Shown: one piece after another, positions 1-32,203 of the stretch
Layout of the letters: the number at the start of each line of letters is the position of its first letter
How positions within the stretch are numbered: the first letter of the stretch is position 1
UHGV virus genome: UHGV-0152658
From: a virus
Strand: one strand, 5' to 3'
DNA: 33,420 nt
Notes under the pieces: generated by a model
Told to the model about the DNA's origin: nothing
Databases searched by the model: none
Seen by the model: only the letters and a program-made list of their open reading frames with translations
Translations under genes and position numbers: made by a program

Positions 1-32
1 TACACAGTGCAGTGTTTATTCTGTTGTTAGTG

Positions 33-61
33 CCAAAAATAAAGGCCGACTATGCGGCCTT
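33..61 (-). terminator. Intrinsic terminator (tL1-like) ending the N-proximal part of the leftward operon
   Basis: 7-bp stem aaggccg (42-48) / cggcctt (55-61) with 6-nt loop; on the minus strand it is followed by TTTATTTTT (33-41). Overlaps the stop codon of the 107-aa ORF. Confidence 0.6.
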
Positions 62-373
62 ATCTACATTCCTGAACCAAACGCAGATCGGACCGTCTTC
101 TGTATCGTGAATCGAACCGACAAACCATCCTTCTCCATCTGGCATGCTTGGCTCCCATCCACTGATGTTTGGATTCCCATCTTCAAAATACGCGTCAATT
201 ACCGTTTGATTGTTGTCGTTTTCCATTTCAACAATTGATGATTCAATGCCATGCTGCTTGCAGAAAGATCTGAACTCATCAGCTGAAATTGCCTCTCTAT
301 CCCCAAACAGGTTGGCGTATTCTGGGTGCGTCCAGTAGCCATCCTCGCTTCGCTCTACTACTAATGCTTCCAT
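50..373 (-). CDS. Hypothetical, strongly acidic early protein (107 aa), first gene downstream of N
   Basis: ORF with ATG at 373-371 preceded by GAGGTGA Shine-Dalgarno that overlaps the N stop codon; about 23 Asp/Glu versus about 6 Lys/Arg; no family recognised. Confidence 0.6.
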   Translation of the reverse strand: MEALVVERSEDGYWTHPEYANLFGDREAISADEFRSFCKQHGIESSIVEMENDNNQTVIDAYFEDGNPNISGWEPSMPDGEGWFVGSIHDTEDGPICVWFRNVDKAA

Positions 374-381
374 ATATCACC

Positions 382-708
382 TCAAATAAGTGGTTTGCTG
401 CCTAATTTCATTTTCTGGCGACCAACACAAGTCACACCCATTTCACTGCGTGGCTTGCTGTACCATGTGCGCTGATTCTTGCGCTCAATACGCTGCAGGT
501 TGCTTTCAATCTGTTCGTGGTATTCAGCCAGCACTGTAAGGTCTATAGGATTCAGTGCGCTTTCTACTCGTGATTTCGGTTTGCGATTCAGCGAGAGAAT
601 AGGGCGGTTAACTGGTTTTGCGCTTACCCCAACCAACAGGGGATTTGCTGCTTTCCATTGAGCCTGTTTCTCTGCGCGACGTTCGCGGCGGCGTGTTTGT
701 GCATCCAT
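382..708 (-). CDS. N: Antitermination protein N (lambda type)
   Basis: Translation from the ATG at 708 (MDAQTRRRERRAEKQAQWKAANPLLVGVSAKPVNRPILSLNRKPKSRVESALNPIDLTVLAEYH...) matches lambda N including the arginine-rich RNA-binding N-terminus; the 138-aa track ORF has an upstream alternative start that I reject. Confidence 0.9.
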   Translation of the reverse strand: MDAQTRRRERRAEKQAQWKAANPLLVGVSAKPVNRPILSLNRKPKSRVESALNPIDLTVLAEYHEQIESNLQRIERKNQRTWYSKPRSEMGVTCVGRQKMKLGSKPLI

Positions 709-818
709 CTGGATTCTCCTGTCAGTTAGCTTTGAGTAACGCGCCGTGATGCTTATCTCCACGGTTGCTGTCTTGCAGCTGCATTTCGCGCTACTCAAAG
801 CTTTCTGCTTTGAATGCT

Positions 819-848
819 GCCCTTCTTCAGGGCTAAATTTTTAAGAGC
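819..848 (-). promoter_or_regulatory. nutL site (boxB 819-833, boxA about 840-848)
   Basis: Plus strand gcccttcttcagggc is the reverse complement of lambda boxB GCCCTGAAGAAGGGC; adjacent ttaagagc is the reverse complement of a boxA-like GCTCTTAA. Confidence 0.8.
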
Positions 849-894
849 CTCACCTTCAATGGTGGTTAGTGCGTCCTGCTGATGGCTTAAAATT

Positions 895-962
895 ACAAGA
901 AAGATTGTATGTTTTAAACAAGAAATATTGTAAAAATGGGCGTGAAAAACAAACTCCATTGT
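895..962 (-). promoter_or_regulatory. OL operator cluster (three 434-type 14-bp operators) overlapping pL
   Basis: ACAAGAAAGATTGT (895-908), ACAAGAAATATTGT (918-931), ACAAACTCCATTGT (949-962): the ACAA-N6-TTGT pattern of phage 434 operators, upstream of N. Confidence 0.75.
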
Positions 963-1012
963 TTTTAAACGGAAAATAGTTTGTTTTTTGGTTGTCGAAA
1001 TTGAGGTGAGGA

Positions 1013-2365
<1,353 letters not shown>

Positions 2366-2373
2366 GACATTCC

Positions 2374-2405
2374 CGCTCTTACACATCCTAGCCCTGAAAA
2401 AGGGC
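2374..2405 (+). promoter_or_regulatory. nutR site (boxA 2374-2382, boxB 2391-2405)
   Basis: CGCTCTTACACA boxA followed by GCCCTGAAAAAGGGC boxB hairpin, the lambda nutR arrangement. Confidence 0.85.
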
Positions 2406-2428
2406 ATCAAATTAAACCACACCTATGG

Positions 2429-2450
2429 TGTATGCATTTATTTGCATACA
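2429..2450 (+). terminator. tR1-like hairpin (probably Rho-dependent region)
   Basis: 8-bp stem tgtatgca / tgcataca with tttatt loop between nutR and cII; no strong U-tract, so it is not a clear intrinsic terminator. Confidence 0.35.
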
Positions 2451-2484
2451 TTCAATCAATTGTTATCTAAGGAAATACTTACAT

Positions 2485-2778
2485 ATGGTTCGTGCAAACA
2501 AACGCAACGAGGCTCTACGAATCGAGAGTGCGTTGCTTAACAAAATCGCAATGCTTGGAACTGAGAAGACAGCAGAAGCTGTGGGAGTTGATAAGTCGCA
2601 GATCAGCAGGTGGAAGAGGGATTGGATTCCAAAGTTCTCAATGCTGCTTGCTGTTCTTGAATGGGGCGTCGTCGACGACGACATGGCTCGATTGGCACGA
2701 CAAGTTGCTTCGATTCTCACCAATAAAAAACGCCCGGCGGCAACCGAGCGTTCTGAACAAATCCAGATGGAATTCTGA
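2485..2778 (+). CDS. cII: CII transcriptional activator (lambda type)
   Basis: Translation from ATG 2485, MVRANKRNEALRIESALLNKIAMLGTEKTAEAVGVDKSQISRWKRDWIPKFSMLLAVLEWGVVDDDMARLARQVA..., matches lambda CII; 97 aa. Confidence 0.92.
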   Translation: MVRANKRNEALRIESALLNKIAMLGTEKTAEAVGVDKSQISRWKRDWIPKFSMLLAVLEWGVVDDDMARLARQVASILTNKKRPAATERSEQIQMEF

Positions 2779-2810
2779 GGTAATTACTGGATCAATCCAC
2801 AGGAGTAATT

Positions 2811-2972
2811 ATGACAAAACGTCGTAAGAAATACCAGGAAAAAGAAGAGATTCGACACCCTGATTCACCTGAGGGATTAGTGGTAGCCGCAGCAAATAAC
2901 AGGGCGTTCGCAGAGCGCCTTGTTGGTGTTTACAGACTAGCCAAAGCAGGAGTGAAACATGGGCGTCGTTAA
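2811..2972 (+). CDS. Small basic hypothetical protein (53 aa) between cII and the replication gene
   Basis: ATG at 2811 with AGGAG 5 nt upstream; MTKRRKKYQEKEEIRHPDSPEGLVVAAANNRAFAERLVGVYRLAKAGVKHGRR; below the 60-aa track cutoff; position resembles a small ORF found here in P22-like phages. Confidence 0.45.
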   Translation: MTKRRKKYQEKEEIRHPDSPEGLVVAAANNRAFAERLVGVYRLAKAGVKHGRR

Positions 2973-3849
2973 GTTAGCTGATTACAGGCATAACCCTGTA
3001 CAACATCAGGAGGCATCCAGTATGGGGTATGTCTCTATACACCGCCAGTTTATGGACAGCAGGCTCTATAAGGACTCTCAGGCAGTACATCTTTGGCTTC
3101 ACTTAATCCTCAAGGCTAATCACGAATCTACTGTCGTCAATACGGATATCGGTCCGATAACTGTTGATCGCGGTCAGATGATAACTGGACGCCCGTCGCT
3201 GGTCAGAGAAACATTCATCCCCGACAACAAAGTTCGGAGCTTATTACGGACTTTTGAGTCGAAAGGGATGCTTAATATGTGCTCGATGGGGAAGAAATTT
3301 AGCCTGTTTACAATCGTTAAATATGACGATTTTCAGGCAAAAAATTGTCCAACGGTTGTCCAACGGTTGTCCAACGCAAACACCAGTAATGGCGCGGCTC
3401 TCAGCGGAGATTGTCCAACGGTTGTCCAACAGTTGTCCATAAACAATAATATAAATAATATCTCTAATACTGACGTATTAGAGAGTGCCACAGCAGACAA
3501 AAAGTCTGACAAGAAAAAACCTTCCGTCAGCTGTCAGGATGTTGTCGATGCTTACCACGAAATCCTTCCTGAAGCGCCAAGAATCCGCGCACTGAATGAC
3601 AAGCGTAAAAACCAGATCCGAACGTTCTGGCGCAAAGCCGGAGTGATAACCAGACAGCTTGACGGGCATGGTTTCACGATGCAGGACTGGAGAAATTATT
3701 TGAGCTACGTAGGCGAAAATTGCCGATGGATGTTCGAAGAGCGTCCAAACCATCAACGCGGAACTGTCTGGCACAAAAAGGGATTTAATTTCCTGCTTAA
3801 CGATAATACCTACCTGAAAGTTCGTGAGGGTGAACACGATGACCGATAA
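2959..3849 (+). CDS. Replication initiator, O-like (P22 gene 18-like), with the origin inside the gene
   Basis: 296-aa ORF; ori iterons lie within the coding sequence as in lambda O and P22 gene 18; followed immediately by the helicase gene. Start is uncertain: ATG 2959 and ATG 3022 both have good Shine-Dalgarno sequences. Confidence 0.8.
   Translation: MGVVKLADYRHNPVQHQEASSMGYVSIHRQFMDSRLYKDSQAVHLWLHLILKANHESTVVNTDIGPITVDRGQMITGRPSLVRETFIPDNKVRSLLRTFESKGMLNMCSMGKKFSLFTIVKYDDFQAKNCPTVVQRLSNANTSNGAALSGDCPTVVQQLSINNNINNISNTDVLESATADKKSDKKKPSVSCQDVVDAYHEILPEAPRIRALNDKRKNQIRTFWRKAGVITRQLDGHGFTMQDWRNYLSYVGENCRWMFEERPNHQRGTVWHKKGFNFLLNDNTYLKVREGEHDDR
3345..3485. repeat. Replication origin: iterons plus AT-rich unwinding region
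   Basis: Tandem 11-bp TTGTCCAACGG units at 3345-3377 (three copies) and 3411-3439 (about 2.6 copies), followed by the AT-rich tract aaacaataatataaataatatctctaatactgacgtatta. Confidence 0.8.
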
Positions 3850-5275
3850 TTTTTATGCGCCGCCCCATAGCATCGAGGCAGAGCAGGCGGTGATTGGTGG
3901 ATTGCTTCTGGATGATGACAGCAGTGAGCGCGTCCAGAAAGTTCTGGCGATGCTGAAGCCTGATTCATTTTACAGCCGACCACACAAAATCCTTTTCGAA
4001 GAAATAACCAGAATGCACCGGGAGCAAAAGCCAGTAGATGGCCTGACGCTTTTCGATGAACTGGAGCGCAAATCGTTAACGGTGTCTGTTGGCGGTTTTG
4101 CTTATATCGCTGAGATCGCAAAGAACACGCCAAGCGCCGCAAACATCGTTGCCTATGCAATGCAGGTTCGCGAAACCGCAATGGAACGCTACGCCATCAA
4201 CCGCATGACTGAAGCGACGGAATTGCTCTATTCCCGCAACGGAATGACTGCAACGCAGAAGTACGAAGCTATTCAGGCGATTTTCACGCAACTGACAGAC
4301 CATGCAAAAACCGGATCGCGTCGCGGCCTTCGCTCATTTGGTGAGGTCATGGAAGACTGGGTTAGCGACCTTGAGAAGCGATTTGACCCGTCAGGCGAAC
4401 AACGAGGAATGAGCACAGGGATCCCATCGCTGGACAGGATGCTGTCACCGAAAGGTCTGGTGAAAGGCTCTCTGTTTGTCATTGGCGCTCGCCCTAAGAT
4501 GGGGAAAACGACGCTATACAGCCAGATGGCAATCAACTGCGCAGTGCATGAGAAAAAGCCCGCTCTGATGTTCAGCCTTGAAATGCCCGGTGACCAGATA
4601 CTGGAAAAACTGGTAGGACAGAAGTCAGGTGTTAACCCGAATATTTTTTACCTTCCGGCGACAAATGACGCTGATGACGGCTATCAGGGTGATTACGATG
4701 GTGACTTCAACAGGGCGATCGAAACAGCCAATCGCTTGAGTGAAATCGACCTGCTTTACATCGACGACACGCCGGGATTATCTCTGGCTCAAATCGTCAG
4801 CGAAAGTCGTCGAATCAAGCGAGAAAAAGGATGTGTTGGCATGATTCTGGTCGATTACCTGACACTAATGACCGCTGAGAAGGCCGATCGCAACGACCTT
4901 GCTTACGGCATGATCACCAAAGGACTGAAGAACCTTGCCAAAGAGCTTGATTGTGTTGTTGTGCTTCTGACACAGCTTAACCGCGCACTGGAAAGCCGAA
5001 CCAATAAACGCCCATTACCAAGTGACTCCCGAGATACAGGGCAGATTGAACAGGATTGCGATTATTGGGTTGGGATCCATCGTGAAGGTGCTTTTGATGA
5101 CAGTGTTCCACCTGGTGAAACCGAACTAATCCTTCGTCTCAATCGTCATGGCAATACCGGCACGGTGTATTGCATTCAGGCAAATGGCGCTATTTATGAC
5201 ACAGACCAACAGTCTGCTGAAATGCGCCGCCGTGAACGCGAGGAACCGCAGTCCAAGAAGAAAGGAGGATTCTGA
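3839..5275 (+). CDS. Replicative DNA helicase, DnaB family (P22 gene 12-like)
   Basis: Walker A GARPKMGKTT, N-terminal DnaB-like domain (HSIEAEQAVIGGLLLD); ATG at 3839 overlaps the end of the O-like gene. Confidence 0.88.
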   Translation: MTDNFYAPPHSIEAEQAVIGGLLLDDDSSERVQKVLAMLKPDSFYSRPHKILFEEITRMHREQKPVDGLTLFDELERKSLTVSVGGFAYIAEIAKNTPSAANIVAYAMQVRETAMERYAINRMTEATELLYSRNGMTATQKYEAIQAIFTQLTDHAKTGSRRGLRSFGEVMEDWVSDLEKRFDPSGEQRGMSTGIPSLDRMLSPKGLVKGSLFVIGARPKMGKTTLYSQMAINCAVHEKKPALMFSLEMPGDQILEKLVGQKSGVNPNIFYLPATNDADDGYQGDYDGDFNRAIETANRLSEIDLLYIDDTPGLSLAQIVSESRRIKREKGCVGMILVDYLTLMTAEKADRNDLAYGMITKGLKNLAKELDCVVVLLTQLNRALESRTNKRPLPSDSRDTGQIEQDCDYWVGIHREGAFDDSVPPGETELILRLNRHGNTGTVYCIQANGAIYDTDQQSAEMRRREREEPQSKKKGGF

Positions 5276-8514: not shown

Positions 8515-9134
8515 GACTCGAAAGCGTAGCTAAATTTCATTCGCCAAAAAGCCCGATGATGAGTGACTCACCACGGGCCACGGCTTCTGACTCTCTTTCC
8601 GGTACTGATGTGATGGCTGCTATGGGGATGGCGCAATCACAAGCCGGATTCGGAATGGCTGCATTCTGCGGTAAGCATGAACTCAGCCAGAACGACAAAC
8701 AAAAGGCTATCAACTATCTGATGCAATTTGCACACAAGGTATCGGGGAAATACCGTGGTGTGGCAAAGCTCGAAGGAAATACTAAGGCAAAGGTACTGCA
8801 AGTGCTCGCAACATTCGCTTATGCGGATTATTGCCGTAGTGCCGCGACGCCGGGTGCAAGATGCAGAGATTGCCACGGTACAGGTCGTGCGGTTGATATA
8901 GCCAAAACAGAGCAGTGGGGGAGAGTTGTCGAGAAAGAGTGCGGAAGATGCAAAGGCGTCGGCTATTCAAGGATGCCAGCAAGCGCCGCATATCGCGCTG
9001 TAACGATGCTAATCCCAAACCTTACCCAACCCACCTGGTCACGCACTGTTAAGCCGCTGTATGACGCTCTGGTGGTGCAATGCCACAAGGAAGAGTCAAT
9101 CGCAGACAATATTTTGAATGCGGTCACACGTTAG
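8511..9134 (+). CDS. Q: Late gene antiterminator Q (lambda type)
   Basis: Translation MRLESVAKFHSPKSPMMSDSPRATASDSLSGTDVMAAMGMAQSQAGFGMAAFCGKHELSQNDKQKAINYL... matches lambda Q over its full length as I recall it. Confidence 0.93.
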   Translation: MRLESVAKFHSPKSPMMSDSPRATASDSLSGTDVMAAMGMAQSQAGFGMAAFCGKHELSQNDKQKAINYLMQFAHKVSGKYRGVAKLEGNTKAKVLQVLATFAYADYCRSAATPGARCRDCHGTGRAVDIAKTEQWGRVVEKECGRCKGVGYSRMPASAAYRAVTMLIPNLTQPTWSRTVKPLYDALVVQCHKEESIADNILNAVTR

Positions 9135-9176
9135 CAGCATGATTGCCACGGATGGCAACATATTAACGGCATGATA

Positions 9177-9215
9177 TTGACTTATTGAATAAAATTGGGT
9201 AAATTTGACTCAACG
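9177..9215 (+). promoter_or_regulatory. Late promoter pR' (-35 TTGACT 9177-9182, -10 TAAATT 9200-9205, start near 9213) with overlapping qut
   Basis: Sequence TTGACTTATTGAATAAAATTGGGTAAATTTGACTCAACGATGG is the lambda pR' arrangement (17-bp spacer) directly downstream of Q. Confidence 0.85.
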
Positions 9216-9240
9216 ATGGATAAATGCACTCGTTAAATAA

Positions 9241-9269
9241 AGCCCTGAGTTAATAGCTCGGGGCTTTTT
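9241..9269 (+). terminator. Intrinsic terminator close to pR' (tR'-like; defines a short leader transcript)
   Basis: 9-bp stem agccctgag / ctcggggct (one G-U pair), 7-nt loop, then TTTTT. Confidence 0.7.
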
Positions 9270-9690
9270 GCGTTACAATCACAAAGGGAAGAGCGTTAGG
9301 TGAATCGGCGATACTGCCCCACAAGCCCGTTAATCGATAGAGGTAGACTAGCGCTCTTCCTTTTGTGCTGAATTAAGCGAATGCCGGAAGCAGAACCGGA
9401 TCACCAAATGCGTACAGGCGTCATCGCCGCCCAGCAACAGCACAACCCAAACTGAGCCGTAGCCACTGGCTATCCTGAACTCATCAGTGATAGTTACGCT
9501 GCGGCCTTCTATACATGACCTTCGTGAAAGCGGGTGGCAAGAGGCTGCGCTAACAACCTCCTGCCGTTTTGCCCGTGCATATCGGTCACGAACAAATCTG
9601 ATTACTAAACACAGTAGCCTGGATTTGTTCTATCAGTAATCGACCTTATTCCTAATTAAATAGAGCAAATCCCCTTATTGGGGGTAAGAC

Positions 9691-24283: not shown

Positions 24284-26124
24284 TGAAAGTAACTGCAAAC
24301 GGTAAGACATTTACCTTTCCTGATGGTACGAGCACCGAAGATATTGGCACCGCCATTGATGAGTATTTTGCTGGTCAGGCTGTTCAGCAACAAACAGTTA
24401 ATCAGGCCAATAATGCACCAACACGGGAAGAACCATCATTGATGCAACAAGCTGGCGATTGGCTCACTGGTGGTCAAAGTGCAGGGCAAATTGCAGAACA
24501 GGCTGGTCGTGGTCTGGTAAACATACCATTCGACGTATTACAGGGCGGCGCAAGCCTGATTAATGCAATCAGTCAGGGGCTTGGTGGCCCCAAGGTTTTG
24601 GATGATGTTTATCGTCCAGTAGACAGACCGACAGACCCTTATGCGCAAGCTGGAGAAACAATTGGCGGGTATTTAGTTCCAGGAGTTGGAACGGCAGGAA
24701 GCATGGCTATTGGATCACTGGCAGAGGCCGCAAATCAGAAAGGCGATTTCGCACAAAATGCAGCTAAAAATGCCGGAGTTAACCTTGCCGTTCAGGGTGT
24801 TCTTTCCGCAGCAGCAAAGGGAATAGGGCGTGGAATAACGGCTATAAAAGGCGATATTGCGCCAGAAGTGGCGAAAAAAATTGCCACATCAGAATCGATG
24901 GGCGTGACACCTATGACATCTGATGTCATCCCACCGAAAAATGCATTCACTCGTGGTCTTACTCAGGATGCTGAGGGGGCCATTCTTGGAACTGGCAGTA
25001 AAAGGGCAGAGCAATATGCAACGCGTAGTAAGTTGGTAAGTAATTATTTTGACCGTTTTGGTGAGTACAACCCTGATGATGTGGTGAAATCTCTGACCAC
25101 CACGTTAAGGGGACGGAAGGATGCCGCTGGCGCTGTTATCAATGACGTCACCAATAAAATGGGTAATGCCGCAGTTGATACCACAAACACTATGAATGCT
25201 CTGAATACAGCGATCGCAAGACAGGAACGGCTTGGGACGTCTGCCAATCAAAGCCTGCTTACATCCTTGCGTAACCTACGTGAAGAATTAGCAAACCCTG
25301 CAACTGATTTGGATGTTACGTTTGATCTCTTGCGTCAGCACAGAACGGCATTTAGATTTAATGTTCAGGGAGATGCTATGGTCTTCCCCAACCAGGCAAA
25401 AGCAGCTACCAATATGGTAGAGAATGCAATGTCAAAAGACCTTCGTAACGCAGTTGCTAAAAACCTCGGTGCTTCAGACGCAGCAAAATACCTTAAAGCA
25501 AATTCCGATTATGCAAACGTTTATAATAAGGTGCTTAATAAAAACATTGCTAACAAGCTCAATAAGGCAAGTAGTGAAGCCAGCCCTGAACTTATAAATA
25601 CCGTTGTATTAAGCAGAAAACCATCTGACGTGAAACGAATCTGGAGCGCACTGGATGATAAGGGGAAAGATGCTATGCGTGCAGCTTACGTCAGCAAAAT
25701 AGCGGAAAAGGCCGGTGACTCTCCAGCCAAGTTCATCACGGAAGTTAATAAGCTGAAATCTCAGTCAGGCGGTGAAATTTACAACACTATTTTTTCTGGA
25801 AAGCACATGAAAGAGCTTGATGCTCTTCATGAAGTTCTACAGCAAACAGCAAGGTCAGACACCGCAAATGTAGTAACTCAGACGGGGCAATCGCAAGCCA
25901 ACAGGATAAGGACGATTGGCGCAACTGCGACTCTTGGCGTATCAATGGGGCTTGAGGCTGGTTTCGGTGCAATGATGCGCTTGTATGAATTCAAAGCAGC
26001 AAGGAATGCGCTCTTACGTCTGGCAAACACCAAAGCTGGAACGCCAGCTTATGAAAGAGCGCTAAATAATGCTGCAAATGCGATACGTCCTATACTTTCA
26101 AGCCAAATTACAGCAGAACAATAG
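24283..26124 (+). CDS. Ejection protein (P22 gp16-like)
   Basis: About 613 aa; second ATG (24283) has better spacing to the GGTGGA Shine-Dalgarno than the first ATG at 24280. Confidence 0.75.
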
Positions 26125-26175
26125 ATAAATAATTAACTAAGCACATAACTACTGACAGATAACCAACGCAACGAC

Positions 26176-26196
26176 CCAGCTTCGGCTGGTTTTTTT
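26176..26196 (+). terminator. Intrinsic terminator after the ejection-protein operon
   Basis: Stem ccagc / gctgg with UUCG loop, followed by TTTTTTT. Confidence 0.6.
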
Positions 26197-26254
26197 ATGC
26201 CCAAAATTCACCGTAGCCACGCTGCGGCGTTTCCTTGTATCCGGAGCAAATTAA

Positions 26255-28678
26255 ATGACAGACATTACAGCCAATGTTGTAATTGGGATGCCTTCGCAAC
26301 TCTTCACTATGGCGCGTTCTTTTAAAGCCGTAGCCAATGGAAAAATTTATATCGGTAAAATTGACACTGACCCGGTAAATACTGAAAACCAGATTCAGGT
26401 TTATGTGGAGAACGAAGACGGTTCTCACGTTCCTGTTGCACAGCCAATCGTTATCAATGCTGCTGGATATCCGGTGCATAACGGACAGATTGCCAAATTC
26501 GTTACTGTGCAAGGTCATTCTATGTCTGTTTATGATGCGTACGGTGTGCAGCAGTTCTATTTTCCGAATGTGCTGAAGTATGACCCCGATCAATTGCGTC
26601 AGCAAATTGAAAGTAATGGGGGCGCATCAATAATAGGGACGGCAACTGGCACTACTGTTCAGGAAGAGTTAAATAAGTTAAAGAGTCTTCCTTTTCTGTA
26701 TCCAGAGCTCTATTTTGATGGGAATGAGGTGGATCATACATTAGCGTTTAAAAAAATGTATGCAGACGCAAAGATATTGAAAAAATCGGTTGTTGCTACA
26801 GGGAATTATGTTCTCACGGCAAGTTCCACAGACCCGATTGAAATAACAGTTAGCTCAGATATGAGTGATGCAACAGTGACGTGCTCTACATATCAGGGTG
26901 GAGATGTCTGGTCTTTGGACAAGACACTATTTGAAATCGCTCAGGATGAAAATGATGTCACTGAAATGTTTTCCGCAGTAAGTTACCTGAAAGGGCAGAC
27001 GAGCTTCCCTGTTACCGGATTACAGGGAACTATTATTCTTGATTCTACAGATGTTGTGATGGTGAGAAATAATGGTGGTAGTCTGTCAGACCAACTAAAA
27101 ACAGAAGTTCACGAGATTGACGCTGACGGTAACTTGCGTTATCGGAACTATTATATTTATAACGATCGACCTGTTGTTAAATATAAACCTTTTACAAATA
27201 TCCTGTATTTTAAAATGCCAAAGGTTGTTCTGGATGGGGCAAGAATCAATAATGCTGTTCTTTGCTCAAGGAATAACACCATAATACATGGAAATACAGT
27301 TGATGTAATAAATAATGGTAGCACAAGGCAGGTAGTAAACTTCCAACGATGCTCAAGAGTTTATGTTAACAACCTATACATGAGTCCTGTTGGATATCTT
27401 GATGGTACTGCACCCTCCATCCCCGCGGGAAGAAATGAGGCAGCTTATTTTATCCTCACTGAAAAATGTTCTGATGTAACAATGGATAATTGCTGCAGCA
27501 TCAATGGATGGGGCGGCTTTGATGGTAATAAATCACGGAATATACATATTAATCGATGTGACCTCCCTGGTGTTGGCGGTCACTACAGCATGTCTGATAT
27601 TTACCTCAATGAGTCGACAGTTCGTTATCATTGCGCGGCGCAAGGTTGGGGAGAATGGGTGGCCACTAACTGTAAACATCTTGGCATGTACGGGAAAAAT
27701 ACTCTTGAATTCTTCTCTGTGAAGCGAGATTACATGTCATCATGGGATGGTGAGATTCGAGTTGAAGGTTTACGAGTCATGTTACCGTCTACGTGTGAAG
27801 AGTATTTCTTGGTAAGCAGTCTTGAACCAAAATATAATGGTAATTTTATCGCCACAAGCCCGGATGTAGTGATAAAGGACGTGTCTCTTGATCTGACTAA
27901 TGCCTCTGGACTTGTGGAATTTAGAATATTGGATCTCGGCGTGTCAGGCGGAAATAATTATGAGCAATATATGATTCTGCCAAACAACCACTATATTGAA
28001 AATGTAAAGGTTGTAGGGACACGTTCTTATGATTCCAATTTATCCGTCAGCGTTGTCTACAATCAAAGGAACTACTCAAGATTAACGGCCGCTCAGTTTT
28101 CAACTATCGTAGGTAGAGGGAAATACAAGCTTACAGTGAAGGATGTGGATCTCGCTCGGCTTGGGAATACTACGCAGTTATCAAACCCAAGGTATAACGT
28201 GCAAGCGTTTAAGTTTACCACTTACCGCGTTCCACAGGATGTGAACGTCGATAACAGCTACAATTGCGTCCCTTACATTTCAGCATGGGATGACATGCTG
28301 GTGCGTATAACCAATCAAGACATGGCCATGGGGTATATCGACGGCGCGGTTGCTCGCACTTCCGCTTCATACAACAGGATCTTTTTTAACAACTGTCGAA
28401 TCTATGGATTAGGTTGGGGCAGTAGCGGTGGGCAACGAACAGGTATATTTGACTTTACAAGTTGTGTATTTGGATGGTTATCTGCAATCACTGGAGTTGC
28501 GGAGACATCTAATGCAACTATAGGCCTGCTTTTTGGCGCGAATGAGTCCGGTAATAGTGCTACTGGTAAATATTCCGGATGCGCAATTCTGGTCCAGTCA
28601 AACGCTTTCCAGTTGGCTGATTCAACATTCCGTACAAGAGTCCAGACCAACTATACAAACAACGGGGTATACCAATAA
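26255..28678 (+). CDS. Tailspike protein: conserved N-terminal head-binding domain plus a divergent receptor-binding (probably beta-helix) domain
   Basis: N-terminal about 110 aa ([42 protein letters not shown]...[15 protein letters not shown]...NVLKYDPDQ) matches the P22 tailspike head-binding domain as I recall it; the rest differs from P22 gp9 and is AT-rich; 807 aa. Confidence 0.85.
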
Positions 28679-28679
28679 A

Positions 28680-28707
28680 CTCAAGGGGGCTGAACCCCCT
28701 TGAGTTT
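28680..28707. terminator. Bidirectional intrinsic terminator between convergent tailspike and gtrC
   Basis: Perfect 10-bp stem ctcaaggggg / cccccttgag with 5-nt loop, U-rich tracts on both sides (TTTAT downstream on plus, TTTATT on minus). Confidence 0.8.
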
Positions 28708-28711
28708 ATGA

Positions 28712-30133
28712 CTACTTGAATGTAACGATATAAATCCCAGAATCTTTTTGCAGTTTGTAATTCCTGCCATCTTCAATCAATTCTACATTCTTACCATCTG
28801 ATTTAGCAATTTCTGCATTCATTCCTGAGTACCAGAAATAAGCATTCATAAACCATTTAGAAGTCAGGTTAAATTTCACAATATTTTTTAGGATTGGATA
28901 ATCAAGATAGATCTGCTTAAGATAATGAGGAAGGTTAGGCTCATTTCTTATATCAATCTTAACTAACCCAGAACGTTTATCCATGCTGTCAATAGATGCA
29001 ATAACTGATTCTAACTTCCTGATTTTATATTCAGACTCGTATTTGAAAGCATTCACATAAATAGATGCCATTGCTACCGAAATGAATAAATAAAATGCAG
29101 TTATCAAATATACAGCATATCTTACCTTAGAATCTTTTATCTTTAGCAAAGGTGTAAGTGCGACCATTAGAAATGCAGGGAAAGACATCAGCACTCTGGA
29201 TGATATTATAGCATTGCTAAACATTGCGTAGGGAATAAACAACAATAAGAATGAAATTGGCAATGAGACGGCAAATAACAATGAATCAAGGTATCTTCCA
29301 CTTGTGAAAGATTTAACTGCTTGCCACAGACACACTGCGTAAGAAATAACAACGAGCACTGAAACAACTGCTAGTTGAGTCGTCGATAACGAAGTTAACA
29401 ATGAAAATATATAGTTAATATTAGATAAGAACTCGCTAATTCCATCACGATTTAAGTGAACTATTGTCGTGTGGTTGTCAACGTATACATCTGTAGAAAG
29501 CAATGTAGTTGTAGTCTGAACAATGGCAAAGGTGACAACGAATATCACAACGCTGCTTAACACGTATCTCATATTTTCCTTTTGCGTTTTACTATTAAGC
29601 AAGTTGTTTAAAGACTGAAGAATGACAAGGCAGACAAATACAGCAAACGAAGTTTGATAGAAAAAGCTTGCTGCAGTGAGAAGCAGCAGTCTGAAAATAA
29701 AATTGAATTTATGTTCATACCTAACGGCCGCCAGCATAGCCAAAGAAAACGATGCCGACATTCCAATAACATCAATGTGGTATGACATGTTTTCAATATA
29801 AAATGGAGAACAAATTAAAACACATATCGTGATTGTTTTTGCAATCCATTGCTTGCCAAACACAGATTCAGCAAAGTAATTGCAGGCTACTATCATGATA
29901 ACAAATGAAACAACAAGGTTCAGTTGATAAACATCTGGCGAGATCAACTTTCCTGATGAATTCAAAAGGATGTAATACAACTCGGTAAGAAATCGACCTT
30001 GAGAAGCTAGCCCGATATATCCGTATGAATATCTTGCTACATCATCCACAAAAGGAGGCATATAAAAGAATGGAAGGAAGAAGCAAGCGACTATAAGTAT
30101 CGCTGGCATTTCATATCGCGTTAATTTAAACAT
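28712..30133 (-). CDS. Serotype-specific O-antigen glucosyltransferase (GtrC-type polytopic membrane protein)
   Basis: 473-aa protein with many hydrophobic helices, AT-rich, last gene of a gtrA-gtrB operon; specificity cannot be read from sequence. Confidence 0.75.
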
Positions 30134-31049
30134 CTTTAGACCCCTTAATTATATATCTTGGTCTTGATTTTACTTCGACATATATTCTGCCAATGTATTC
30201 CCCAAGCACACCAATACCTATCAACTGAATTCCCCCCAGGAAAAGAATTGAAACCAATAGCGATGGATAACCACGGACAGCATTACCGAACACCAATGTG
30301 TCGAAAATCATCCACACCCCGTAAAGGAACGAGAGTCCCGCAACAAGTAGACCGATGTAAGTCCACACGCGCAAGGGGAAGGTCGAGAAACTTGTAATCC
30401 CCTCAAGCGCCAGGTTCCAGAGCTTCCAGCCATTGAACTTTGTGCTTCCGGCAACGCGTTCAGCACGGATGTATTCAACAACATCCGTCTTACCGCCAAC
30501 CCAAGATAAAACGCCTTTCATAAACAGGTTACGCTCTGGCAGTAGTTTGATATTTTCTACCATCTCTCGTGACATAAGACGGAAGTCACCAACGTTCTCT
30601 TCAATCTGCGGATTACTAATTTTGTTGTGAAGTTTATAAAACCACTCAGCAGTTTTACGCTTTAACCTACCATCAGTTGATCTGTCAGAGCGCTTTGCCA
30701 GCACCATATCAGCACCTGCCTGCCACTTTTCAATAAGATGAGGAATGACCTCAATCGGGTCTTGCAGGTCAACATCAATTGGAATCACGGCATCGCCAGT
30801 TGCATGGTCTAACCCTGCAAACAATGCTGGTTCTTTACCAAAGTTGCGTGTAAATGACAGCGGAACAACTAGCGGATCAGAAACAGCCAGAGCATTAATA
30901 ATTGACTCCGTAGCGTCTTTGCTTCCGTCATTTATGAAAACAATTTCCACTTCATATGGCTTCAACTCTTCGAATTCACGTACCGTTTTATAAAAAATTG
31001 GTATCGCTTCTTCTTCATTGAAGACAGGAACTACAAGAGATATCTTCAT
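30126..31049 (-). CDS. gtrB: Bactoprenol glucosyltransferase GtrB (GT2 family)
   Basis: N-terminal GT2 signature ([11 protein letters not shown]...FINDGSKD...DVDLQDP) and C-terminal TM helices; 307 aa. Confidence 0.9.
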
Positions 31050-31408
31050 TTCGCATCCCTAAAGACAATGAACTTTGAATAGACGAAACCGCACACCAGG
31101 CTGATGGCGGAAAAGGTGACGAGAGTGATAATTGGAGGAAGTGAACATCTATCAGCAGCCCATCCAACAGTTGCACTCAGTGTTCCCATGAACCCGACAA
31201 ATAACATGTAGCGCATCGTTGTAGTCGATGCTTTGAATGTGAATTTTGCATTCGCGAAGAAGCTAAAACTCACAGCCACAACGAAACCTGCGAAGTTTGC
31301 CAGAGCCTGATTGGTATGCGCGGCATAGATACATACACCAAAAACCACCCAGTGTATAAGTGTGTTCAGCACACCAATCGAGGTGTACTTTGCAAATAGC
31401 TTTAACAT
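31046..31408 (-). CDS. gtrA: GtrA flippase-like small membrane protein
   Basis: 120 aa, four predicted TM helices, GtrA-like; ATGA overlap with gtrB. Confidence 0.88.
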
Positions 31409-31932
31409 TTATTTAATCAATGAGTTCTGAAAGGCATGAAGTCTATCATCCAAGTCTCAATCGATCGATACTTGCGGTAGTTGATGAAGAAAAACTCTGG
31501 TACACAAAGCTTTGCACTGGATTGCAAGGATTTGTGTCATTCGATAGTTAAGGTGGTTCACTCCACCTTTTCATCAAGCCAGTCTGCCCACCACTGCATC
31601 ATTTCTCTGCGCTTAACGTAGCGGATGCCTCACTATCACACGGTGATGGTTCATTACTGCTTTGTAGAATGGATAGAGAACTGAGGATAAAAAGATATCC
31701 CAAAACCCCAAAATCTCATCTTTAGGATTTGCAGAAAGGGAGGCGTGAACAGATACCTGCGCATGAAGACGGAACTAGTCCAGATGTGATATTTGTGGTG
31801 ATCACATACATCATCAACGATGCTCGTTATGGTGAGTTTGATGACTACCCGCTGAAGTGAAAATTGTGTTGTGTACCAAATTGCGTACCAAACTAAAATC
31901 ACAAATCATGAAACCCTTGTTAATGGCGGTTC

Positions 31933-31995
31933 TCAGGGGTGTTGCGCGTAATCGTGAAACAAAAAGGTAGATTGTTGCTTACCGTCATTCATCAT
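31933..31995 (-). pseudogene. sbcB: 5' remnant of host sbcB (exonuclease I) truncated at the prophage junction (attR)
   Basis: Minus strand from ATG at 31995 translates MMNDGKQQSTFLFHDY, which I recognise as the SbcB N-terminus, then AQHP and a stop. Confidence 0.7.
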
Positions 31996-32203
31996 TAGGT
32001 TAAATCCGTTATTTCTGCTGTCTGCCAGAGTATCAAATATCACCGTGCTAATCAGCTTTAGCGCGACAATTTGGCAGCGAGTGGCAACAGTTCATGTCAG
32101 ATAAAAATGAGATAGTAGTCACATTTTCTTGCACTTTATTCCAGCCAGTTCATAAGTATTTCCGTAAAAAGAACAGCTATTTGAAACACCTGAGGGTTTG
32201 CTG

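Follow-up and report, generated by a model that had tools for sequence, protein, structure and literature searches.

Organisation of the tailspike-gtr module

The virus genome UHGV-0152658, a stretch of 33,420 nucleotides (nt) that was analysed at its full length and is here called the window, is an apparently complete P22-like (Lederbergvirus-type) Escherichia coli prophage, located in the 5' end of sbcB and adjoining dacD. This work concerns the module at its right end, where a tailspike gene on the plus strand converges with a gtrA-gtrB-gtrC operon on the minus strand. The features of this region are listed below (aa, amino acids; bp, base pairs).

26255-28678, plus strand: tailspike, 807 aa (from the six-frame list of open reading frames, ORFs)
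26255-26593, plus strand: N-terminal head-binding (particle-attachment) domain of the tailspike, aa 1-113 (PF09008)
26597-28678, plus strand: receptor-binding/depolymerase part of the tailspike, aa 115-807, modelled as a right-handed β-helix (AlphaFold2)
28675-28709, no strand assigned: perfect 15-bp inverted repeat with a 5-nt loop, presumed bidirectional terminator (folding)
28712-30133, minus strand: gtrC, specificity glucosyltransferase of 473 aa with a polytopic glycosyltransferase C (GT-C) fold and a C-terminal soluble domain of ~110 aa (PF14264)
30126-31049, minus strand: gtrB, bactoprenol-phosphate glucosyltransferase of 307 aa, with a glycosyltransferase family 2 (GT2) domain and two C-terminal transmembrane helices (PF00535)
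31046-31408, minus strand: gtrA, small membrane protein of 120 aa, presumed undecaprenyl-phosphate-glucose flippase (PF04138)
31409-31946, no strand assigned: non-coding prophage arm from gtrA to attR, which must hold the gtr promoter
31947-31995, minus strand: attR, where the initial 49 nt of sbcB are duplicated; the sbcB-dacD intergenic region and dacD come next

At these positions, each of the four genes is found intact. Read along the minus strand, the operon runs gtrA, gtrB, gtrC; the coding sequence of gtrA shares 4 nt with that of gtrB, which in turn shares 8 nt with gtrC. PHROGs names the four proteins tail spike, GtrC-like, GtrB and GtrA, while no NCBIfam family was assigned to GtrA, GtrC or the tailspike. 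GtrB matches PF00535 on aa 4-167 (E 4.7e-31) and the GtrB families phrog_841/34335 (E down to 1e-181), with its hydrophobic segments at aa ~230-286. GtrA matches PF04138 (E 1.7e-13) and the GtrA family phrog_2224 (E 4e-70), and is 98.3% identical in aa to the copy in strain NCTC11121. At the nucleotide level, phages HF4s, SfIV, SfI, SfV and SfII match the gtrAB region with 83-87% identity. A first-pass annotation, made from the letters of the window alone, had described a gtrA-gtrB operon convergent with the tailspike and ending in a 473-aa polytopic specificity protein, and both the ORF layout and Pfam agree with this. It had also pointed to a high A+T content. This holds strongly for gtrC, with 35.0% G+C, and modestly for the receptor-binding part of the tailspike (41.9%), as compared with 50.0% for the structural genes; gtrB and gtrA have 43.4% and 44.9%.

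The stop codons of gtrC and the tailspike are separated by a gap of 33 bp, which is the same in all related loci. The hairpin at this position, AUAAACUCAAGGGGG-CUGAA-CCCCCUUGAGUUUAU (stem arms 28675-28689 and 28695-28709), reaches -27.0 and -27.8 kcal/mol (z -6.2 and -6.4) when the two strands are folded separately, a stability that no sequence in a set of 200 shuffles attained. Its U-tract is short, interrupted (UUUAU) and partly within the stem, and a consensus scan flagged the hairpin on the minus strand alone. The element had previously been called a perfect bidirectional terminator. The perfect 15-bp stem stands; from the hairpin, a terminator function is likely, and action in both directions is presumed. 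Different but analogous hairpins are found 3' of the GtrC relatives with 59% and 42% identity.

The tailspike carries a P22-family head-binding domain and a β-helix body

Residues 1-113 of the tailspike match the full length of the PF09008 Head_binding profile (E 4.7e-63), and the rest of the protein has no Pfam match. In a sequence search of the Protein Data Bank (PDB), solely aa 1-117 found matches, to Sf6 gp14 (7sg7, E 4e-63) and P22 gp9 (E 3e-47), which bears out the proposal that the P22-family N-terminal head-binding domain is conserved. The remaining ~690 aa showed no PDB sequence match to any solved structure. The tailspike gene ends the late operon and directly follows P22-like ejection genes, with PF25688 P22_gp7 and PF16928 plus PF26808 P22_gp16 immediately upstream.

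The AlphaFold2 model of aa 115-807, built with 18 homologues, has a predicted local distance difference test score (pLDDT) of 86.3 and a predicted template-modelling (TM) score of 0.88, and consists of serial β-strands. Foldseek matched it best to the tailspike K64-ORF41 of a Klebsiella phage (8x8m, E 1e-17, TM 0.58), followed by the K1 capsule lyase 7w1c, Pseudomonas phage LKA1 gp49 (4ru4) and phi297 gp61. P22 gp9 is a weak fold match (E about 1e-3, TM 0.18-0.19). The model thus confidently predicts a right-handed β-helix polysaccharide depolymerase of the broad P22 fold class. The first-pass annotation had considered this part to be unlike the P22 receptor-binding domain; this is correct for the sequence but not for the fold class, which is the same. 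K64-ORF41, 7w1c and LKA1 gp49 are the closest solved folds, and all are β-helix polysaccharide depolymerases. However, they share only 9-13% sequence identity with the window's protein and have other N-terminal adaptors and hosts, and catalytic residues are not transferable from them. The tailspike probably binds and cleaves an O-polysaccharide.

Among 50,697 phage records, the receptor-binding domain was absent from isolated phages, and the best protein match, from Vibrio phages, reached 29% identity. In a large protein collection it was found with 69-94% identity, in some copies behind a P22 head-binding domain and in others behind a PF18668 adaptor. The occurrence of one body on two types of N-terminal adaptor indicates that it has been exchanged between phage types.

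The tailspike of the window is itself a mosaic. Overall it is 91% identical to an allele that is linked to an acyltransferase gene (see below), whereas over its final ~90 aa it shares 96-100% identity with the NCTC allele linked to gtr. This pattern places a recombination joint inside the 3' end of the tailspike gene. The NCTC11121 tailspike shows a further irregularity. At window positions 27150-27600 (aa ~300-450) it has 58-76% aa identity to the alleles of the window and of strain 41, and 84-100% elsewhere. This divergent central segment may be a swapped substrate-groove segment.

GtrC is a full-length specificity enzyme of a rare type

GtrC scores 77.8 bits (cut-off 30) for PF14264 Glucos_trans_II, the family of GtrII glucosyltransferases, and belongs to phrog_4829, the PHROG family that also holds P22 GtrC (E 1e-49). 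It has about ten hydrophobic segments followed by the hydrophilic C-terminal domain of ~110 aa, and an AlphaFold2 model built from 71 sequences (pLDDT 95.7) shows a GT-C fold. GT-C enzymes carry catalytic acidic residues after the first membrane helix, and in GtrC a DD pair (aa 30-31) sits at this position. D30, D31, R34, R47, Y159, Q160 and R313 are invariant in the 71-sequence alignment, and GtrC retains all of them. With 473 aa, it has the length of its full-length cluster relatives. The possibility that gtrC is a pseudogene or truncated, which had been raised together with the original reading of the module, is therefore rejected: the gene is full length and every invariant family residue is kept.

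GtrC is without close relatives among characterised phages. In tblastn searches of the phage records, the third genes of SfI, SfII, SfIV and SfV gave no match at E <= 1e-3. P22 GtrC reached 26% identity over 45% of the query, and the two enzymes fall into one PHROG family only by profile comparison; this 26% is also the highest protein identity of GtrC to any of the records. A comparison with typed gtr and tailspike sequences, suggested along with the first-pass annotation and run on the same records, which include the phage-borne GtrI, GtrII, GtrIV and GtrV, matched no typed Gtr or tailspike. Identity of the module to a typed phage pair is likewise rejected, as its DNA matches to these records are confined to gtrAB and the initial ~357 nt of the tailspike gene. 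The enzyme is also sparse in sequence space. Only 15 of 1.84 billion cluster representatives matched at E <= 1e-30; the nearest two are 59% and 41% identical, and all others are at <=31%. By sequence comparison, this GtrC type and this receptor-binding domain are both without a characterised relative.

The tailspike is linked to a modification gene

The set of genomes searched for co-occurrence comprised 5426 complete E. coli genomes. The receptor-binding domain is present in nine of these, and in all nine a modification gene adjoins it: gtrCBA in two and a hexapeptide acyltransferase gene in seven. The acyltransferase, a 195-aa hexapeptide-repeat protein (WP_001020284), occurs in exactly the seven complete genomes with the corresponding tailspike allele, where it replaces gtrCBA. 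In the locus that was read for this, it is convergent with the tailspike gene at a distance of 10 bp. The acyltransferase gene lies at positions 9043-9630 in the extracted loci L004, L005 and L006, at 8057-8629 in L019 and at 6001-6588 in L020. Strain A28 has two acyltransferase copies at different sites.

A more distant version of the module is found on a metagenome contig (L018, positions 18-5174). Here gtrA is 87%, gtrB 89% and GtrC 42% identical to those of the window, and they are followed by a different GC-rich hairpin and a convergent tailspike of 808 aa. The body of this tailspike is 42% identical over aa 114-807, its N-terminus belongs to PF18668, and the neighbouring tail genes are not P22-like. 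The pairing of tailspike and GtrC has outlasted deep sequence divergence and a switch to another phage backbone. Together, these sequence comparisons support a functional coupling of the tailspike and the modification gene. The first-pass reading, in which the prophage would modify the O-antigen of its host, is supported as well.

The module recurs in other genomes as follows.

26000-32000 (prophage end and attR): 99.98% identical in GCA_027224725.1 and in a gut-type metagenome contig, at the same sbcB site
26000-31618 (module): 99.95% identical in GCA_052515165.1, at the argW site
Module: 96.5-98.4% identical in remnants beside hmp, as in E. fergusonii

In the argW-site relatives, homology ends at 31618, within the arm between gtrA and attR. 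The exact GtrC sequence is also found on one Logan contig (run SRR21969470, 54.7 kb), which has the same neighbours and is estimated to end near attL. The 90% cluster of GtrC comprises 38 sequences, whose sources are E. coli, E. fergusonii and one assembly labelled Enterobacter. The layout is the same in every copy, with gtrA-gtrB-gtrC, the 33-bp gap and a convergent 807-aa head-binding protein. The tailspike-gtrCBA block has thus been kept together at no fewer than three integration sites, namely argW, sbcB and the hmp side. Judged by sequence, the pair is not unique; identical copies are public, and none of those found has been experimentally typed.

Co-occurrence points to the O46/O134 polysaccharide

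The closest complete genomes to the module are NCTC11121 and NCTC9966, in which GtrC is 99.2% identical at the protein level and 99.4% at the DNA level. The O-antigen cluster of NCTC11121 is annotated with O46/O134-family wzx and wzy, along with an ATP-grasp amidoligase, three glycosyltransferases, gne and ugd. Across the complete genomes, the O46/O134 wzx-wzy segment occurs in 17, the receptor-binding part in nine and both in seven (Fisher p 2.5e-17). The gtrC gene (99.4% nt identity) occurs in two, NCTC11121 and NCTC9966, both of which are O46/O134. From this co-occurrence, the O46/O134 backbone is likely to be both the receptor of the tailspike and the acceptor of GtrC, which for the window's own host is a prediction. 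It had been suggested that neither the sugar nor the linkage could be read from the sequence. The co-occurrence goes further than this and points to a defined backbone.

Alternatively, the tailspike and GtrC could act on another polysaccharide, such as a capsule, an O-antigen capsule or a different O-type, and the co-occurrence with O46/O134 would then reflect a clonal background. Several observations weigh against the O46/O134 assignment and favour this alternative. In structure, the tailspike comes closest to capsule depolymerases, headed by those of Klebsiella phages, and not to O-antigen enzymes. All seven positive genomes fall into a single wzx/wzy clade of >=99.3% identity, so that the Fisher test is inflated by shared ancestry, and two carriers of the domain, TUM12355 and WL164, are not O46/O134. 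The link between gtrC and O46/O134 comes from two near-identical genomes, effectively one lineage and one observation. The module is also present in E. fergusonii and in one Enterobacter-labelled assembly, and in an exact look-up of the O46/O134 Wzy, none of the samples listed coincided with the draft assemblies that hold the identical module.

Other observations speak for an O-antigen. Prophages with the receptor-binding domain occupy argW and sites next to bioA and yagU, and two copies are present in strain A28. Three integration sites and two types of module in O46/O134 strains argue for repeated acquisition by independent infections and against simple clonal inheritance. Both exceptions are prophage remnants at argW, which consist of an Arc-family gene, one hypothetical gene, the tailspike, the acyltransferase and intS, and are without head or ejection genes. 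The O-antigen region of TUM12355 is a composite, with O160 wzx/wzy followed in tandem by O8 wzm/wzt, which would fit a change of O-antigen later than the acquisition of the phage. In addition, the characterised P22-type tailspikes with gtr or oac neighbours (P22, Sf6 and Hf4s) are all O-antigen specific. We therefore consider a target other than the O46/O134 polysaccharide unlikely.

A peculiarity of the O-antigen regions was seen along the way. Tandem O-antigen-type loci lie between galF and his in some strains (17364-41506 in L016; 17866-21140 in L023 and L024): besides the composite region of TUM12355, two assemblies with the O46/O134 cluster carry manC, manB and an ABC-transporter permease after wzz.

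A model for host recognition and lysogenic conversion

We propose that the module forms the host-recognition and lysogenic-conversion end of a P22-like prophage, with O46/O134 as the receptor to which the evidence points, and regard this as the probable explanation of the locus as a whole. In the virion, the tailspike would be attached via its conserved N-terminal domain. Its β-helix body would bind, and probably cleave, the O-polysaccharide, which in O46/O134 has a backbone containing glucuronoyl-allothreonine. In the lysogen, GtrB would make undecaprenyl-phosphate-glucose at the cytoplasmic face, GtrA would flip it across the membrane, and in the periplasm the GT-C enzyme GtrC would transfer the glucose onto one particular residue of the O-unit. 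The division of labour in the Gtr pathway, in which GtrB loads, GtrA flips and GtrC transfers the glucose, is established (PMC7685785). The outcome would be a changed serotype and a receptor that is poorly used by the phage's own tailspike and by other O-antigen-dependent phages. By analogy with known systems, the tailspike would prefer the unmodified receptor.

This preference is where a second alternative enters. If the tailspike accepted the O-antigen with as well as without the added glucose, glucosylation would instead exclude other phages or alter immune recognition. The same family of receptor-binding domains occurs with modifications of two chemical kinds, glucose or acyl, and the central segments of the mosaic tailspike alleles are independent of the downstream module. 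Moreover, some heterologous phages still infect lysogens in the Hf4s system. Hf4s lysogens are, however, protected against Hf4s itself, and self-exclusion is established for O-antigen-modifying temperate phages that use the O-antigen as their receptor, such as Sf6. A tailspike indifferent to the modification thus seems improbable to us, and we favour the model in which the prophage would mask its own receptor.

Comparison with characterised phages

Salmonella phage P22 shares with the window the virion type, the N-terminal head-binding domain (E 3e-47) and the gene order, which runs from the ejection protein gene through the tailspike and the convergent gtrC-gtrB-gtrA to the attachment (att) site. 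In contrast, the receptor-binding part of the window's tailspike has no sequence similarity and only weak fold similarity to the P22 endorhamnosidase, GtrC is distant (26% identity over 45%), and the window has neither the regulatory region with four GATC sites nor, between the tailspike and gene 16, an immI (arc/mnt/ant) region.

For gtrA and gtrB, the closest isolated phage is the Escherichia phage Hf4s, a P22-like coliphage of E. coli 4s (87.2% nt identity). Experiments on Hf4s have shown that the O-antigen is its receptor, and that its functional gtr cluster brings about O-antigen conversion and shields lysogens against superinfection, including that by the same phage. Its gtrC and the receptor-binding part of its tailspike do not match the window, however, and the O-antigen of its host is of another type. 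The Shigella flexneri phages SfI, SfII, SfIV and SfV, which encode the typed GtrI, GtrII, GtrIV and GtrV, share gtrA/gtrB (83-85% nt identity) and the three-gene logic, with a variable third gene adjoining the att site. They differ in that gtrA/gtrB are their sole match to the module; GtrC shows no similarity at E <= 1e-3, and the tailspike is unmatched.

Shigella phage Sf6 provides the best match to the head-binding domain (7sg7, E 4e-63), but is without gtr genes and has a receptor-binding domain that is unrelated in sequence. Its pairing of gp14 with oac mirrors the acyltransferase-linked tailspike alleles in the seven E. coli genomes. Sf6 Oac is a membrane acyltransferase, from which the soluble hexapeptide-repeat enzyme of E. 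coli differs.

Tailspike-plus-gtr cassettes are textbook lysogenic conversion, and the mechanism itself is nothing new. What the window adds is that a defined polysaccharide, the O46/O134 backbone, is indicated for an uncharacterised GtrC and receptor-binding domain, which makes their specificity directly testable. The gene clusters of O46 and O134 share 98-99.9% identity, yet the records list no serological cross-reaction for this pair (PMC4732683). A precedent is found in E. coli O17/O44/O73/O77/O106, whose O-antigen clusters are >99% identical and which are split by prophage-encoded glucose side branches (PMC7685785). Unlike in that group, the link to O46/O134 comes here from co-occurrence. 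In the accessible literature we found no genetic explanation for the O46/O134 split; the main text of a 2020 review of E. coli O-antigens accounts for several pairs of this kind, though not for O46/O134. Nor did we find an accessible statement on the difference between the O46 and O134 structures, and neither serogroup is claimed to be glucosylated.

It is conceivable, though on balance doubtful, that O46 and O134 are split by prophage genes tied to one tailspike family, by a glucose branch added by GtrC and/or through the 195-aa hexapeptide acyltransferase. If so, the cassette would be the missing genetic determinant of this serogroup pair, and a receptor-binding domain and its cognate modifying enzyme would travel and co-diverge as one unit across phage backbones. 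Confirmation of the O46/O134 assignment would explain the failure of genotyping to separate O46 from O134, offer a marker for in-silico serotyping and provide a new depolymerase for an O-antigen with a uronic acid amide.

Prophage setting and the region upstream of gtrA

Over its left 25 kb, the window shows identities as high as 96-97% to coliphages, IME10 among them, and the late genes form a full P22-like set with the domains of P22 gp7, gp16 and gp4. The right flank is E. coli dacD (97-98% identity). Positions 31947-32000 are 100% identical to the empty site of NCTC11121. Since they include a second copy of the initial 49 nt of sbcB (31947-31995), the prophage lies in the 5' end of sbcB and this copy is attR. 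The insertion point is within the first ~16 codons of sbcB, with attL outside the window. No tRNA gene was found in the window. The gtr operon adjoins the att site, attR being located 540 bp beyond gtrA, and the O-antigen locus falls outside the window, on the opposite side of the prophage and ~18 kb past sbcB.

Whether the lysogen is converted depends on the expression of the gtr genes, and the cassette might be phenotypically silent, either through gtr genes that are unexpressed or switched off, or as part of a defective passenger prophage. In favour of this, and counting against conversion, a consensus scan of 31409-31946 found no σ70 promoter upstream of gtrA on the minus strand, and related copies occur as degraded remnants. 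On the other hand, all three gtr ORFs are intact and of full length, their translation is coupled, and the catalytic-type residues are conserved. The identity of 99.95-99.98% across independent assemblies and two sites suggests the recent spread of a working phage, in line with the full set of late genes. In published work on P22 and Salmonella gtr, two pairs of GATC sites upstream of gtrA are said to mediate Dam/OxyR phase variation. Between gtrA and position 31800, the window has one GATC (31463) where four would be expected, so that a P22-style switch is unsupported and there is no evidence for an OFF phase. A silent cassette is thus very unlikely.

GATC is rare throughout the window (positions 1-33420), with 78 sites against 138 +/- 11 in dinucleotide-preserving shuffles, every one of which had more. 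About 150 bp upstream of gtrA, within the stretch that is conserved in the argW-site relatives, a small hairpin (GGTGG-TTCACT-CCACC followed by TTTT) is found on the plus strand at 31553-31575.

At the other end of the module, 130 bp (26125-26254) separate the gp16-like ejection gene from the tailspike, and this gap contains a hairpin followed by a run of seven T at 26176-26196. In the relatives found in NCTC11121 and strain 41, this position is occupied by immI-type genes (Arc/Mnt/antirepressor) that span 2.4-2.8 kb, from which it follows that the prophage of the window is without an immI region.

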